A stretch of DNA of 64,000 nucleotides from a virus. The position numbers and the translations under genes were made by a program. Numbering within the stretch: position 1 is the stretch's first letter; every line of letters begins with the position of its first letter. The notes beneath the pieces were generated by a model. That model was given only the letters and a program-made list of their open reading frames with translations. It made no database searches and had not been told where the DNA came from. The stretch covers positions 1 through 64,000 of IMG/VR virus record IMGVR_UViG_3300027772_000010, one strand, 5' to 3'. Positions 1 through 48,546 of the stretch are shown one piece after another.

Positions 1-2406
1 ATTATATATTAAACCTCCATCTTCTTTTTTATGACTATAATCTATTCTTTTAGATGAAGTTTTTTCTCTTTTAAATTTTTCTTTTTCTGCACTACTTAAT
101 TCAGATGCAGTTTTAGGGGTATCACTATTTATTCTTTTAGAAGGTCTACAAGCAGGATAACCTTTTCTTTTCTCACCCTTTTGTCTACCACACTCTTTAC
201 CTGTTTTAACATCTACCCACTTCTCAGCAAACCATCTATCTAATCCTCCATGTTGGCCACCATTTTTCATTATAGGTATTTCTGTTACTTTATCTGTAGG
301 AAATATATAGTCTCCTGTATTTGGGTATAAAACTACTCCATTGGCTGCTACTGGAAAAGCCATATTATTAGTAGTTATATAATTACTATTGATAACTTTT
401 TTAGGTGTAAAATTATCTAAATTAGATATTAAATAACCATTATCGTCATTTATTTTTCCTCCTTGTTTAAAATCTCCTACCATAAAAGTATTAGGAGAAA
501 TAAGTTTAGATTGTGAAGGTCTATTTATTACATTTAATTTTGCATTTTTTAAATAATTATATGTTTTTGTAGGTATTTCTAAATTAGTCTGAGCATTAGC
601 TCCTATTTCACTACCAATATAATTATTTTCTAAATCAGATAACAACTCTTTAGTATTAGAATAATTATTAAATTCATGGGCAGCTCCTAGTATATTTGCT
701 ACTCCCATTCTATATGCTTTATCTATTGGAGAAAATTTATTTACCAAAGGCAAATTAGGTAAATTTTTAGCCAATAAAGCACTTGTTGTACTGTGTCTTA
801 ATGCATCTAAATAGCCATTACGTTCCCCAGTATTTAATTTATTATCAAATAACTCATCTTCATTTTTAGCTGTTTCATAAACTAAATTTAAATATTCACG
901 AGGTATTAATATGTTTTGAAGATTGTTATCTAAATTTTTTAAATTATTTTTAATGTTATTATATTCTTTTTCTATTGAATTTTTTTTAATTTTTAATCTT
1001 CCTCCATTTTGAAATTCTGCTGGAACAGCCATTGGTTGTCCAGGATATACTTTTGATGCATTTTGTTGTAAAATAATATCAGACCTTAATTTTGTTTTAG
1101 GGTCATAATAAATTTTATCTTCTAACTCAAAAGGATTAAACATTAGACTCTCTAATTCATCTAATAAAGGAGTTGCTTTTTTTAAATATTTACCTATAGT
1201 TGGATTAACATTTCTATCAATAAATTGATTTGCATATCTTGTAGGATCAAAATCAAATCTATCTGAATATTTTAAATATTCTCCTTTAGCATCTTTACCT
1301 TTTGTTATGTAATGTTTTCCCATAACAAAATCATCATAAGGATATAAATCAAATGCTGGGTTAACAGGGTCAGGTACTCCATCTTCATTAGGTACTCCCC
1401 AATCCCTTACAGCTTCATCAGATAAAAGAGTGTCAGGATAAAGTTTATTATAATCTCTTATTCTATATTTATTTGGAGCAGTTTGCTCAAATGCTCCTGT
1501 TTTAGAAGGCAACCCTAAATACATTCTAAGAGCATCTTGCTCTCTAGCAAGAGGTTCCATAGGTTCATTACTATAATCTTTTCCTTCTATACCAACTGCT
1601 GTTCTTAAAAGTTGGTTTAAAGGAGTAAAGTATCCTTCTTTAGTATCTAAGTTACCTAAGTTTTCTTTTAAAGATAAGGCTTTTTTTAATTTAGATAATG
1701 TGCTTTTTTTATCTTCTACCTTTCCTCCTCTTTGATAAGTAGGAGCTCCTTGGTTTTGTAGTGTTTTCTTTGTTGCTATTTTTGCCATTACCAAGGATGG
1801 TGTATGAGTTATGTGTGAAGCAGCTACTGGATTAAACGTGTTGTTTAAAAATTGTTTTGCTGTATTTGCTCCAATACTGCCTATTGCTCCAACCCCCAAA
1901 GGAGCTGCTAAAGCTAAGGCTGCATTTCCATATTCTCCTTGGTTAATTAATTCTGGAGTTTGAGCTAATCTTCCAGCCATTCCTCCTACTATATTAAATG
2001 GATTAATATAATCATCAAAGAAGTTGTCTTCATTTGAAAATCTATATTTACTTTTCATTCCCTCACCTATGTCATACAAATCTTTTGCATTTGCAGTTTC
2101 TAACATAGATTTTTGATTTAACTCTTCTAGCCTTCTTACATCAGCTATCCTTTTTTCTTTAGCCTTTTGGGATTCATTGGCTTTTTCTCTTAACAACCTG
2201 TTAACCATTTCCTTATCATCAGAACTGTCTAATTTTGGACTATTCTTATTATAAGTGTTATCCACAGCAACACGTTTGGTTGGAAGGTTAAAATATTGTT
2301 TTAATTTGCCTCCATCTTGGTATTCATTAATAGACAATTCCTCAGAGTAGTTATCCAACCACCCTGAAGAATTAGTTTTATTAAGTTTATTTTTACTTTT
2401 AGCCAT
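1..2406 (-). CDS. Modular virion cargo/ejection-type protein, truncated by the window edge and absent from the ORF track
   Basis: Translated by hand: ATG at 2406 overlaps the muzzle stop (TAATG) and the frame stays open to position 1 (MAKSKNKLNKTNSSGWLD...KKEDGGLIYN). Six xxxGG motifs. Sits directly after the muzzle gene, as crAss-like cargo genes do. Confidence 0.85.
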   Translation of the reverse strand, partial: MAKSKNKLNKTNSSGWLDNYSEELSINEYQDGGKLKQYFNLPTKRVAVDNTYNKNSPKLDSSDDKEMVNRLLREKANESQKAKEKRIADVRRLEELNQKSMLETANAKDLYDIGEGMKSKYRFSNEDNFFDDYINPFNIVGGMAGRLAQTPELINQGEYGNAALALAAPLGVGAIGSIGANTAKQFLNNTFNPVAASHITHTPSLVMAKIATKKTLQNQGAPTYQRGGKVEDKKSTLSKLKKALSLKENLGNLDTKEGYFTPLNQLLRTAVGIEGKDYSNEPMEPLAREQDALRMYLGLPSKTGAFEQTAPNKYRIRDYNKLYPDTLLSDEAVRDWGVPNEDGVPDPVNPAFDLYPYDDFVMGKHYITKGKDAKGEYLKYSDRFDFDPTRYANQFIDRNVNPTIGKYLKKATPLLDELESLMFNPFELEDKIYYDPKTKLRSDIILQQNASKVYPGQPMAVPAEFQNGGRLKIKKNSIEKEYNNIKNNLKNLDNNLQNILIPREYLNLVYETAKNEDELFDNKLNTGERNGYLDALRHSTTSALLAKNLPNLPLVNKFSPIDKAYRMGVANILGAAHEFNNYSNTKELLSDLENNYIGSEIGANAQTNLEIPTKTYNYLKNAKLNVINRPSQSKLISPNTFMVGDFKQGGKINDDNGYLISNLDNFTPKKVINSNYITTNNMAFPVAANGVVLYPNTGDYIFPTDKVTEIPIMKNGGQHGGLDRWFAEKWVDVKTGKECGRQKGEKRKGYPACRPSKRINSDTPKTASELSSAEKEKFKREKTSSKRIDYSHKKEDGGLIYN

Positions 2407-40775: not shown

Positions 40776-41168
40776 ATGCAATCAAATTCCAGTACAACTG
40801 TAGTAGGCTCAGCCACTTACACACAAATTGATACTCTAGTAGTGTCACCAATTACTTGTCAGATAACTTCTAGCAAGGTAGTCCACTCTGACAAAGATAA
40901 CTCTGACACTCAAGTATTTGAGCTTGAATTTCTAGGGGAGTATAAAGGCGCAGGTATGCAAAAGGCTTATAGAAGATTAGGCCAAGGTATCACCAAGACT
41001 GGCGAAGCCTTTACTGTAGCACCTTTGAAGACTTTGGACAACTGCGAGATTATAGTTACCAAGAGAGATTCTGATGGTACTGTATTCTTCTCTGTTAAAG
41101 GCAGAGCAAAGGATTTCACTGCTGAAGCTGCTGATGCTGCTGCAAGAGCCAAGAGTATCTTTGGTTAA
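40776..41168 (+). CDS. First early gene; beta-rich hypothetical protein
   Basis: 130 aa, visibly less AT-rich than its neighbours, with its own terminator. Confidence 0.7.
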   Translation: MQSNSSTTVVGSATYTQIDTLVVSPITCQITSSKVVHSDKDNSDTQVFELEFLGEYKGAGMQKAYRRLGQGITKTGEAFTVAPLKTLDNCEIIVTKRDSDGTVFFSVKGRAKDFTAEAADAAARAKSIFG

Positions 41169-41172
41169 AAAT

Positions 41173-41200
41173 AAGGGGAGAAATCCCCTTGTTTTTTTTT
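41173..41200 (+). terminator. Intrinsic terminator
   Basis: AAGGGGA-GAAA-TCCCCTT-G-T9. Confidence 0.85.
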
Positions 41201-41439
41201 AGTATTTTTAACACATTTAATAGGAAAAGAAATATAATAATTTATCTAATTTTTAATTTATTAATTAAAACACAAAATAAATTATTTATTTTCTAAACCA
41301 ATTTATTTTTATTTAATTACCTATTTAACAAAAAAATTAATCTTAAACTCTACATTGTTAGTTGCCATATCTAACAACATAAAGTTTTCAAGTTTGGTAT
41401 CTATAATACCTAATTTTTTTTGTTAATAGTTTGGAAATG

Positions 41440-41481
41440 AGGGAGTTTGGTTGGTAGTATTACTAAGAACTCCCTTTTTTC
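41440..41481 (+). terminator. Terminator-like hairpin
   Basis: AGGGAGTT...AACTCCCT followed by T runs. Confidence 0.65.
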
Positions 41482-41545
41482 CTTTTTTTTCAAAACACAT
41501 TATAGGCCTTTTGGTACATTATATAGCAAAATGTTTATTTTTTAT

Positions 41546-41598
41546 ACCTGAGCTACAGGGTTTTTTAGATTACACAGAAGCTAAGTGAAAGTAATCTA
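41546..41598 (+). ncRNA. Two-hairpin RNA motif, copy 1
   Basis: ACCT-GAGCTACA-GGGT, then TAGATTAC-ACAGAAGCTAAGTGAAA-GTAATCTA. Confidence 0.6.
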
Positions 41599-41599
41599 T

Positions 41600-41705
41600 A
41601 TAATTAAATGCACCATAACTCACTTCCCAAGGGTGAGCAGTTGTAATATCAGTACAAAGTAGAAATACTGGGGTACTTATTACAATTGAGTGCAGAGGGA
41701 AATAA
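41600..41705 (+). ncRNA. Twister-like ribozyme candidate (P1-type order)
   Basis: AA-TGCAC (P2)...CTCAC-TTCCCAAGG-GTGAG (P4/L4), 11-bp P5, GTGCA-GAGGG; loop CCC can pair with GGG. Confidence 0.5.
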
Positions 41706-41828
41706 AAACTTAACAATCCTAAGTTGTTGAAGGCACTTAGTTCCCTAATAATTTACGAATATTGAATTAACAACAGTTCTTTATAGTATTTTATTAGGGT
41801 TTTAGTGTAAAACACAATCCATTATTAA

Positions 41829-41881
41829 ATCCTGAGCTACAAGGATCAAGAACTACTACAGAAGCTTAGTGAACAGTAGTT
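41829..41881 (+). ncRNA. Two-hairpin RNA motif, copy 2
   Basis: ATCCT-GAGCTACA-AGGAT, then AACTACT-ACAGAAGCTTAGTGAAC-AGTAGTT; loops conserved with copy 1 while the stems differ but still pair. Confidence 0.6.
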
Positions 41882-41909
41882 TTTATAATTAATATTAAAC
41901 AATATAACT

Positions 41910-42008
41910 ATGTTAGGAATTATAGTAATTTTCATAATGGTCTACGGATCATATTGTGCTAAGAAAGCACACCAAGAAATAATTAACAACAAAAAACTTT
42001 TTAAATAA
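41910..42008 (+). CDS. 32-aa membrane peptide, not in the ORF track
   Basis: MLGIIVIFIMVYGSYCAKKAHQEIINNKKLFK; A-rich leader. Confidence 0.4.
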   Translation: MLGIIVIFIMVYGSYCAKKAHQEIINNKKLFK

Positions 42009-42049
42009 CAAATAATTAACTTTATTAACACTAAAAATTAACAAAAAAA

Positions 42050-42649
42050 ATGGAAAATTTATTTAACAATTTACAAGAACCAACAGGAGACATTAAAGTA
42101 AGTACAGAAAAAGAATGGTTATCTCTTAATTTAGGAGGAACTATTGTACTACAAAAAGGAAATTTTTCTCAATCATTTACATATTGGGGAAATGTTAGTA
42201 AAATGAATTTTAATAACGCTAACTATATAACAATGGAAGATTGTGATTGGGATACACATACTACTATGCTAGGCAATCTTAAAATAGATAGTATATCTAA
42301 ACTTAGAACTACATTAGAGAATAGTGGGTTAAAAACACTTTCAGATAGTCTTAATTTTAGCACTGAAGAAATAAAAAAAGCTATATTTTCTATTGTTCCT
42401 AACTCAACCATAGTAAAAAATGTATTTAGAGAAAACTTTATATTATGGGAATCATTAACAGATAATGAAAAAAAAGTAATAAGAGTAAAAGATGCAATAG
42501 AAAATTACAATGATTACTTTGTCAACAACCCTTATAAATTAAAATATTTAATCTTAAAAGAAGATGGTAAATTAGATGGTGAAACAATACCAACAATAGA
42601 TCAACTAAATGAAAGATTAAATGACTTATTATTTAACATTAAAAATTAA
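42050..42649 (+). CDS. Early hypothetical protein
   Basis: 199-aa ORF with ATTAACAAAAAAAATG leader. Confidence 0.7.
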   Translation: MENLFNNLQEPTGDIKVSTEKEWLSLNLGGTIVLQKGNFSQSFTYWGNVSKMNFNNANYITMEDCDWDTHTTMLGNLKIDSISKLRTTLENSGLKTLSDSLNFSTEEIKKAIFSIVPNSTIVKNVFRENFILWESLTDNEKKVIRVKDAIENYNDYFVNNPYKLKYLILKEDGKLDGETIPTIDQLNERLNDLLFNIKN

Positions 42650-45725: not shown

Positions 45726-46610
45726 ATGACTAACAACGAAGAAATATTTAATCAAGGATTAGATATACTAAATAAATTTAAACTAAATTGGAACGTAACA
45801 AAATTACCTTTATTTTCTAATTTAGAAACTGACATTTTACCCACCAATTCTTTTGGTATTTTTAGAACAGATACAAATGAGTGGTTAGGAACTCATGGTA
45901 AAAATTATGTTCCTTTGCAAAACTTTGATTTAATTAATACAGTATTAACTGCTTCACAAGACATTCAAGACTTTAATTTACAAGAAGTTAGAGCTGGAGT
46001 TTTTTTAAAAGGTAGAAAAGTGTATATTCAATTACCATTAAGGAATGAAGAAATAGGTGCTTCTCAAGTTAAAAGATGGATTACAGCATTAAATTCTCAT
46101 GATGGTAGTACAGCAGTAGCTTTTGGTTCACAACAAACAGTAATTATTTGTGAAAATACTTTTTATAAAGCTTATAAAGAATTAAATAAAGTAAGACATA
46201 GCTTACATATGAATCAAAAATTAGAAGTTATGGTAGAAGATTTAAATGCTTCTTTACTATTAGATAAATTAATGGTAGATGAATTTAAGTCTTGGATTGA
46301 TAAACCTATTACTACTAATCAAATAGATGCTGTATTAAAGTCTATAGTATCATTAGATGATACACAAGATTTGGAAGACATAAGCACTCGTAAAAGCAAT
46401 CAAATCAAAAAAATTAATGAATCTTTTGAAACAGAGTTTGCTACACAAGGAGAAAACTTGTGGGGATTATTTAATGGAGTAACTCGTTACACTAACCATA
46501 ATATGTTTCCTAATAAAAGTCAAAATAGTATTCAAGAAAGCTTAATGCTTGGTCAAGCAGCTAAAATTAATGAAACTGCTTTTAATCAAATACATGCATT
46601 TGCAAATTAA
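45726..46610 (+). CDS. DUF932-family protein
   Basis: 'YVPLQN', 'LNSHDGS', 'VIICEN', 'VRHS', 'WGLFNGVTRY'. Confidence 0.85.
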   Translation: MTNNEEIFNQGLDILNKFKLNWNVTKLPLFSNLETDILPTNSFGIFRTDTNEWLGTHGKNYVPLQNFDLINTVLTASQDIQDFNLQEVRAGVFLKGRKVYIQLPLRNEEIGASQVKRWITALNSHDGSTAVAFGSQQTVIICENTFYKAYKELNKVRHSLHMNQKLEVMVEDLNASLLLDKLMVDEFKSWIDKPITTNQIDAVLKSIVSLDDTQDLEDISTRKSNQIKKINESFETEFATQGENLWGLFNGVTRYTNHNMFPNKSQNSIQESLMLGQAAKINETAFNQIHAFAN

Positions 46611-48150: not shown

Positions 48151-48342
48151 ATGAATTATATAATTATTAAAAAAATTAAAGATTTAAAATCAAATAAAGA
48201 ATTACCAGTTATTCTTTTAGACACTCATGGAGAAGTATTAGAATATCATACAATTGAAGAAGCTGAAGAAATGAGAGCTAGATTTGAGGTTAATTCAGAT
48301 TCAGGACATGTATACACAATTAAAAAAATTGGCACAATTTAA
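48151..48342 (+). CDS. Early hypothetical protein
   Basis: 63-aa ORF. Confidence 0.6.
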   Translation: MNYIIIKKIKDLKSNKELPVILLDTHGEVLEYHTIEEAEEMRARFEVNSDSGHVYTIKKIGTI

Positions 48343-48348
48343 AAAATT

Positions 48349-48546
48349 ATGGAAATTAACATTAACTTATTAGAAGCTGCATCTGAATTAGCACATGAAG
48401 TTGTATGTGCAAAGTTTAACGATGATGACAATTTAATACACATGGAAGATGCTGATGGTATATATTATACAGAAAAAGCACAAAACTTATTTGACGAATG
48501 GTACGACCATTATTACAATTTATTATTAAACTTAAAAAATAATTAA
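48349..48546 (+). CDS. Early acidic hypothetical protein
   Basis: 65-aa ORF. Confidence 0.6.
   Translation: MEININLLEAASELAHEVVCAKFNDDDNLIHMEDADGIYYTEKAQNLFDEWYDHYYNLLLNLKNN

Follow-up and report, generated by a model that had tools for sequence, protein, structure and literature searches.

What RNA is made from the gene-free island that separates the two gene modules of this phage, and what does a short element that occurs in it twice do there? The island spans 850 nt of the window, by which we mean the whole 64-kb stretch of viral DNA that was analysed. The window genome is AT-rich (about 27% G+C). Its genes for portal, terminase, capsid and DNA polymerase have matches among the crAss-type PHROG families. 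Structural genes point leftward and replication genes rightward, the gap being the point at which the direction switches as well as the GC-skew minimum of the window. A preliminary description, made from the letters of the sequence, had placed two 53-nt copies of an unnamed RNA motif in this gap, and on re-reading the sequence its coordinates, loops and stems proved exact for both copies (Table 1). From the comparisons described below we conclude that the motif is a compact structured RNA family of about 55 nt that had not previously been catalogued.

Architecture of the motif and covariation of its stems and loops

From 5′ to 3′ the motif consists of a hairpin of 4-6 bp (H1) with an 8-nt loop (L1), a spacer of 1-10 nt, and a second hairpin of 6-8 bp (H2) with a 17-nt loop (L2). 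The consensus is GAGCUNNA for loop 1 and ACANNAGCUWAGUGAAA for loop 2, and the spacer is free in both length and sequence. In type A, to which both window copies belong (types are defined below), loop 1 is fixed as GAGCUACA and loop 2 as ACAGAAGCUWAGUGAAA. The loop-1 pattern occurs twice in the window, against 0.10 occurrences expected by chance. A covariance model finds exactly two copies of the whole motif within the 64 kb, copy 2 scoring 70.8 bits and copy 1 68.9 bits, and the next best match reaches 14.2 bits. The folding energy of the copies is ordinary (z about -1.2); since folding energy alone says little, the reality of the motif rests on comparative evidence.

Table 1. Features of the island in the window, and of other loci that carry the motif
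Feature	Location	Strand	Sequence, basis or remarks
Gene-free island	about 41200-42050		850 nt; holds both copies
Intrinsic terminator	41167..41205	+	terminator scan; after 130-aa gene, at start of gene-free island
Long hairpin then U-run, terminator-like	41433..41490	+	inverted repeat; 55 nt upstream of copy 1
Copy 1	41546-41598	+	53 nt; type A
Copy 1, H1	41546-41549/41558-41561	+	ACCU/GGGU
Copy 1, L1	41550-41557	+	GAGCUACA
Copy 1, spacer		+	UUUU
Copy 1, H2	41566-41573/41591-41598	+	UAGAUUAC/GUAAUCUA
Copy 1, L2	41574-41590	+	ACAGAAGCUAAGUGAAA
Copy 1, predicted pseudoknot	41550-41556 with 41577-41583	+	G1 faces A10
Twister-like element, variable P5 insert	41605..41699	+	read by eye; 7 nt after copy 1
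Twister-like UAA	41605-41607	+	predicted cut between 41605 and 41606
Twister-like GGG	41697-41699	+
Conserved hairpin block	41706..41828	+	fold; between twister-like element and copy 2
Copy 2	41829-41881	+	53 nt; type A
Copy 2, H1	41829-41833/41842-41846	+	AUCCU/AGGAU
Copy 2, L1	41834-41841	+	GAGCUACA
Copy 2, spacer		+	CAAG
Copy 2, H2	41851-41857/41875-41881	+	AACUACU/AGUAGUU
Copy 2, L2	41858-41874	+	ACAGAAGCUUAGUGAAC
Copy 2, predicted pseudoknot	41834-41840 with 41861-41867	+
Hydrophobic 32-aa ORF	41910..42008	+	first ORF, 28 nt after copy 2
Two copies in L153	L153:33-92 and 438-497		type B upstream, type A downstream
Two copies in G002	G002 46430-46489 and 48301-48360		type B upstream, type A downstream
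115-aa ORF insert	L003:9140-9497		between copy 1 and twister-like element
Hatchet	L131:75-250		Rfam-grade; on the motif's strand
Pistol	L149:4850-4914		Rfam-grade; on the motif's strand
Pistol	L169:6070-6132		Rfam-grade; on the motif's strand
Array of three DUF805 RNAs	L160:380-1746	-	RF03081
Three hairpins with common loop	L006:11180-11990	-	loop UCGCUCCGCUC
Block right after motif	L128:3140-3262	-	no Rfam match
Block right after motif	L130:705-827	-	no Rfam match
Block right after motif	L136:8923-9045	+	no Rfam match
Block right after motif	L141:1988-2110	+	no Rfam match
Block right after motif	L151:6006-6128	+	no Rfam match

Pattern scans of virus, metagenome and genome collections gave about 35 distinct instances beyond the two window copies. 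The first IMG/VR scan, in which both loops were required and the gap was free, returned a close relative of the window (L003) together with two unrelated contigs (L006 and L007) whose stems are wholly different yet complementary. The metagenome scan returned 29 loci, about 20 of which are distinct true instances, and a one-genome-per-species scan added four more true instances, on MAG contigs of Ca. Paceibacterota (two), Prevotellaceae (one) and Bacteroidota (one). The patterns for these collection scans came from the motif itself, which means that variation is under-sampled at positions that were not freed.

In alignments of 23-32 of these sequences, compensatory changes were found at 13 of 13 stem pairs, and 85-86% of the stem cells are paired, compared with 30-46% when the partners are slid by 1-3 columns. 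Covariance-model scores are bimodal, with true matches at 52-77 bits and all others at or below 16.5 bits. The preliminary description had taken conserved loops with exchanged stems as a sign of selection on RNA structure, and the compensatory changes, spread over many loci, bear this out; the same loop-conserved, stem-covarying pattern is present in other genomes. About 25 loop bases are nearly fixed, and about 11 unpaired bases are almost invariant, namely A8 of loop 1 and ACA and AGUGAAA of loop 2. Among the unpaired bases that the patterns did not force, the departures are U13 to A in two lineages (L006 and L159) and A17 to C in three. When the 3′ half of loop 2 was left unforced, the scan recovered the same four loci, all reading AGWGAAM.

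The two loops are also predicted to pair with each other. Loop-1 positions 1-7 would lie antiparallel to loop-2 positions 10-4 and form 7 bp, in the order G.U (or G.A), A-U, G-C, C-G, U-A, then A.A, G.U or U-A, and last C-G or U-A; in copy 1, where G1 faces A10, five standard pairs and an A.A remain. Three loop types were found: A, GAGCUACA with ACAGAAGCU; B, GAGCUGUA with ACAAUAGCU; and C, GAGCUUUA with ACAAAAGCU. The first variant in both loops was a diverged copy in L153 found with the covariance model, and types B and C were recovered by a scan with loop-1 positions 6-7 and loop-2 positions 4-5 free. Both types alter the two loops together, each in several unrelated stem contexts. The pair between L1-7 and L2-4 is C-G in 25 sequences, U-A in 7 and unpaired in none, and that between L1-6 and L2-5 is A.A, G.U or U-A. 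Only these 2 of the 7 loop pairs vary. The four central pairs (AGCU/AGCU) are constant and, since they never vary, give no covariation support; they may be read as sequence. Scans for AGCU-core variants that freed one loop or both loops gave only chance matches without stems. Support for the predicted 7-bp loop-loop pseudoknot, which comes from two covarying pairs and at most 2-3 independent events, is real but thin. The pairing through AGCT that had been proposed at the outset is thereby backed by coordinated changes at the two pairs that flank it. The pseudoknot has 29 G.U cells and no A.C cells; read on the complementary strand, each G.U would become a C.A mismatch, which assigns the fold to the sense strand.

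In the minimum-energy fold of the whole island, 41547-41565 (the H1 region of copy 1) pairs with 41826-41846 (copy 2). This H1-H1 pairing between copies is probably a by-product of the palindromic loop that they share, and would be a possible long-range alternative. There is a second two-copy lineage, comprising L153 and the 69-kb fragment G002 (Table 1), with the copies around one or several genes; in G002 the type A and type B copies are 1.9 kb apart. The different pseudoknot types of the copies in L153 and G002 would prevent copy-copy pairing.

Carriers, gene context and neighbouring RNA elements

The motif is present in one or two copies per genome. Three complete or near-complete crAss-like genomes of 124, 98 and 94 kb have one copy each, and their capsid proteins are 24-35% identical to that of the window. 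In these three genomes, as well as in the window, 13-22 kb separate the motif from the capsid gene, which is on the other strand, and the motif heads the module that diverges from the capsid genes. By this comparison, the carriers are divergent environmental crAss-like phages and the motif stands at the predicted head of their early genes. Outside the window it lies inside co-directional gene runs and not at a strand switch. Cellulophaga phage phi14:2 does not have the motif. The phi14:2 paper reports long, abundant early non-coding RNAs of unknown function at the same genomic place, and early promoters that share no motif, none being recognisable.

In almost all loci where a neighbouring gene could be read, the motif has the same orientation as one or both of the genes beside it. 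Of 37 distinct instances, 15 have the upstream stop codon 5-13 nt before H1, and where there is a next start, it mostly lies about 12-40 nt past H2; this tight spacing to neighbour genes may simply reflect compact phage genomes. In L148 the motif is in a 5′ leader after a divergent gene, and in L128 and L151 it comes after the last gene of an operon and before convergent genes, with no same-strand gene following. Flanking proteins, both upstream and downstream, are unrelated from locus to locus, so the idea of a partner gene was dropped, and comparing them across loci identified no partner protein for the motif. PHROGs and Pfam searches of the flanking small proteins gave nothing informative. 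At the place of the 32-aa hydrophobic ORF that follows copy 2, L143 and L133 have unrelated hydrophobic membrane ORFs of 66 aa and 77 aa, respectively, and the next gene encodes a signal-peptide or membrane protein in about 9 of 20 lineages.

Within the window, the motif has close RNA neighbours. Copy 2 has a U-run 3′ of H2, and copy 1 is preceded by a terminator-like hairpin that a simple terminator scan missed because of its 20-nt loop. The twister-like element that follows copy 1 is a neighbour and lies outside the motif proper. It combines the UAA and GGG listed in Table 1 with P2 (UGCAC/GUGCA) and the loop UUCCCAAGG, and its P4 reads CUCAC/GUGAG in the window, AGC/GCU in L133 and CUUAC/GUGAG in L127. 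The preliminary description had put such an element between the copies; its layout by eye and the covariation of P4 in L133 speak for it, but it receives no Rfam call. The further claim that the two copies bracket a dense RNA array holds in the window lineage but is not a property of the motif, as the three genomes have a single copy, set between ordinary genes, and L133 is without copy 1.

The comparison with close relatives also bears on modularity. In L133 the flanks are 89% identical to those in the window and positions 41678-41817 are 91% identical, whereas copy 1 is replaced by about 90 unrelated bases. Copy 1 is thus a discrete module, since homology with L133 breaks at its edges (about 41537 and about 41602). 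Copy 2 is kept in L003, L127, L133 and L143, and in L143 homology ends right after it. L003 has insertions on both sides of copy 1, one being a 115-aa ORF between copy 1 and the twister-like element and the other an insert of about 170 nt before copy 1; to judge from these inserts, the island is a site of cassette turnover. Spacing from copy to copy is 284 nt in the window and 284, 398 or 721 nt among close relatives.

Several loci with the motif carry other catalogued RNAs. A hatchet (L131) and two pistols (L149 and L169) lie 1.6-2.7 kb away from it. A DUF805 RNA begins 2 nt downstream of the motif in L160, DUF805b is present in L151 and L156, and L165 has a DUF2693-FD RNA 180 nt upstream. 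Unrelated viral loci, 142 kb in total and scanned as a control, yielded no Rfam match at all. Enrichment of other RNAs near the motif is suggestive, the ribozymes amounting to three loci versus none in a small control, a difference that is not significant.

Some loci showed further RNA elements. In L160, each of the three DUF805 RNAs of the array lies about 15-20 nt before a membrane-protein or lipoprotein gene, and the motif is located between gene 1 and the second DUF805 RNA; the array adjoins an ECF-sigma-like (sigma-70 family) gene and a downstream TPR-like ORF, both recognised by eye. In L006, a 124-kb phage, three hairpins within 800 nt around the motif share one loop and differ in their stems (GACC/GGUC, AGCAC/GUGCU and GGGC/GCCC), forming a second family with conserved loop and covarying stems. 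A conserved RNA-like block directly following the motif in L128, L130, L136, L141 and L151 consists of GGGUU, a covarying hairpin, UUAUUGAGUUCAUAAAU and an inverted partner; this subgroup is made up of large contigs, two of them binned as Ca. Paceibacterota.

Comparison with known RNAs

The preliminary description had left it to Rfam to say whether the motif belongs to an existing family, and it matches none. With Rfam 15, no family reached the gathering score in the window, and a permissive scan of the gap (E up to 10) gave only noise, with no model over the copies at E below 2. The whole island had no blastn match among GenBank phages, ARAGORN found no tRNAs in the window, and the loop sequence was not found in the literature. 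On these comparisons the motif would best be classed among the orphan RNAs, as a new family from crAss-like and Bacteroidota phages.

Pistol (RF02679) has the nearest topology. It is similar in size, and its 5′ hairpin loop forms a pseudoknot of 6-7 bp with a strand enclosed by the second helix, much as loop-1 positions 1-7 of the motif would pair with loop-2 positions 4-10 inside H2; both RNAs occur in phage-like metagenome DNA. Unlike pistol, the motif has neither the P3 hairpin nor the conserved A-rich linker of the AUAAA type, its loop sequences are unrelated, the Rfam model of pistol does not match it even at E up to 10, and U13, at the position to be compared with the G-U cleavage step of pistol, is A in L006 and L159. 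Guanidine-II (mini-ykkC) likewise has two adjacent small hairpins with variable stems and linker and conserved loops that pair mutually. In that RNA, ACGR tetraloops kiss by two pairs when ligand is bound, and the RNA precedes guanidine-related genes; the motif differs in having loops of 8 and 17 nt, a 7-bp pairing and unrelated downstream genes. The put sites of HK022 and the nut boxB of lambda are also phage RNA hairpins that occur once or twice in early transcripts, but they have no loop-loop pseudoknot and no sequence likeness to the motif, and they lie upstream of the terminators that are overridden, whereas the terminators near the motif lie upstream of it. Like the motif, DUF805 (RF03081), DUF805b (RF02914) and DUF2693-FD (RF02926) are orphan RNAs of Bacteroidota and their phages and occur in the same loci. 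They differ from it in sequence and fold, and while a DUF805 RNA stands directly before each of the membrane-protein genes in L160, the motif has no fixed downstream gene.

Other identities were considered and rejected. The motif is not a twister, as it has no UAA, P2, P4 with the CCCAAG loop, or GGG with the T1 and T2 pairings, and by eye the hammerhead, hairpin and pistol cores did not fit either. An intrinsic terminator is contradicted by the 17-nt loop of H2 and by a U-run after H2 in a few instances only, and the scan calls no terminator at the copies. ARAGORN and the Rfam tRNA model gave no match to a tRNA or tRNA-like structure. For an N4-type hairpin promoter the loops of 8 and 17 nt do not fit, and the wobble pairs suit the sense strand only. 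There is no conserved upstream box as would be expected of a promoter, and from the lone Bacteroidota-like -7 box, which precedes copy 1, transcription would begin within H1. A CRISPR repeat or tandem antitoxin RNA was set aside in view of two copies 284 nt apart with different stems and a single copy in other genomes, and a stop-codon read-through signal in view of spacing that is not frame-fixed and of the UAG and UGA that loop 2 holds.

Possible function of the motif

The preliminary description had suggested a ribozyme or protein-binding motif in a cassette that cuts the early transcript into small RNAs, and such roles are putative. We put at about 45% the probability of our preferred reading, that the motif is an autonomous RNA-processing or stability module. 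The motif would fold on its own transcript at the boundary of two cistrons or of two RNA modules, where it would direct a cut or block decay, and the transcript segments on its two sides would meet different fates. A cut might come from the RNA itself, by self-cleavage, or through a conserved factor of host or phage that recognises the invariant bases. In the window, the twister-like cut at 41605/41606 would release a piece with copy 1 at its 3′ end, and copy 2 would mark the end of the RNA island, ahead of the first small ORF. Autonomy is suggested by the unrelated flanking proteins, the sense placement, the tight spacing to stops and starts, and the occurrence both in a leader and after a last gene, and a general punctuation of transcripts is excluded because there is one copy per 94-124-kb genome. 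The absence of the motif from phi14:2, the one crAss-like phage with transcript maps, counts against such a module.

There are several other possibilities. If the pseudoknot, with ACA and AGUGAAA as its predicted active site, cleaved with no protein involved, the motif would be a new self-cleaving ribozyme class. We consider this unlikely, and we likewise doubt the broader picture in which the early transcripts of environmental crAss-like phages would be cut by a kissing-loop ribozyme together with twister, pistol and hatchet. The profile of the motif resembles that of small ribozymes (a length of about 55 nt, stems of free sequence, some 25 loop bases near-fixed, one or two copies on the sense strand and no gene association), the topology resembles pistol, and a hatchet, two pistols and a twister-like element are present in loci with the motif; it was reportedly in such ribozyme neighbourhoods that Weinberg and colleagues found twister-sister, pistol and hatchet in 2015. 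However, most motifs near ribozymes reportedly did not cleave on testing, no cleavage site can be named here, and U13 of the sole GU step is A in L006 and L159. The P3 helix and conserved linker of pistol are missing as well, and with a twister cut 7 nt away a further ribozyme would be superfluous. Alternatively, a site acting in cis on transcription, similar to put or nut, could make polymerase resistant to terminators in the early operon or could itself be a factor-dependent terminator. The one or two copies near the head of the early module, always in sense, agree with this, as do invariant loops that would suit a conserved target such as the host polymerase, terminator-like hairpins close upstream in the window, L003, L006, L133 and L149, and a U-run after H2 in copy 2, L006 and L173. 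We hold it to be quite improbable, as the terminators, lying upstream of the motif, are in an order that does not suit antitermination, a U-run after H2 is missing from most instances, L128 and L151 have no same-strand gene following, and there is no sequence similarity to put or boxB.

The motif might also act in trans, as a released small RNA that serves as a decoy for a host enzyme, the candidate target being a reader of the tRNA D-arm. In loop 2, AGCUUAGU matches 7 of 8 letters of AGCUCAGU, which we take to be a common tRNA D-arm sequence, and this is a lead only; by direct reading against the tRNA consensus, the core pairs of the pseudoknot repeat D-stem pairs. In the window, the stretch from the terminator-like hairpin to the twister-like cut could yield copy 1 as a free RNA of about 70 nt, and the bases do not vary even among phages with capsid proteins only 24-35% identical. 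Since most instances lie between translated genes, with no means of release, since the likeness is short and could be due to chance, and since neither ARAGORN nor the Rfam tRNA model matches the motif, we think a decoy very unlikely. To a signal in single-stranded DNA, be it an origin or priming site, an N4-like hairpin promoter for the injected virion polymerase or mere homology for cassette exchange, we give the slimmest chance. N4 promoter hairpins have 3-nt loops and act on the template strand, and on the other strand the G.U pairs of the pseudoknot (29 cells, with no A.C) would turn into C.A mismatches. Genomes other than that of the window have the motif within co-directional gene runs and not at a strand switch, and homology exchange alone would not keep rewritten stems paired. 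In favour of a DNA signal are the position at the strand switch and GC-skew minimum of the window, the palindrome AGCT in both loops, the breaks in homology between relatives at the motif edges, and the fact that the early promoters of the crAss-like virion polymerase are unknown (bioRxiv 10.1101/2020.03.07.982082).

An autonomous processing or stability module remains the reading that we prefer. Comparative support of this kind, with two stems, a tertiary pairing and about 25 nearly fixed bases, is rare for a small RNA fold, and the motif sits in the early region, the least understood part of the biology of crAss-like phages. To our knowledge, Bacteroidota hosts do not have the classical Shine-Dalgarno and Hfq routes. 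A self-cleaving motif would constitute an additional ribozyme class, and one recognised by a factor of host or phage would provide a handle on early RNA control in Bacteroidota phages.
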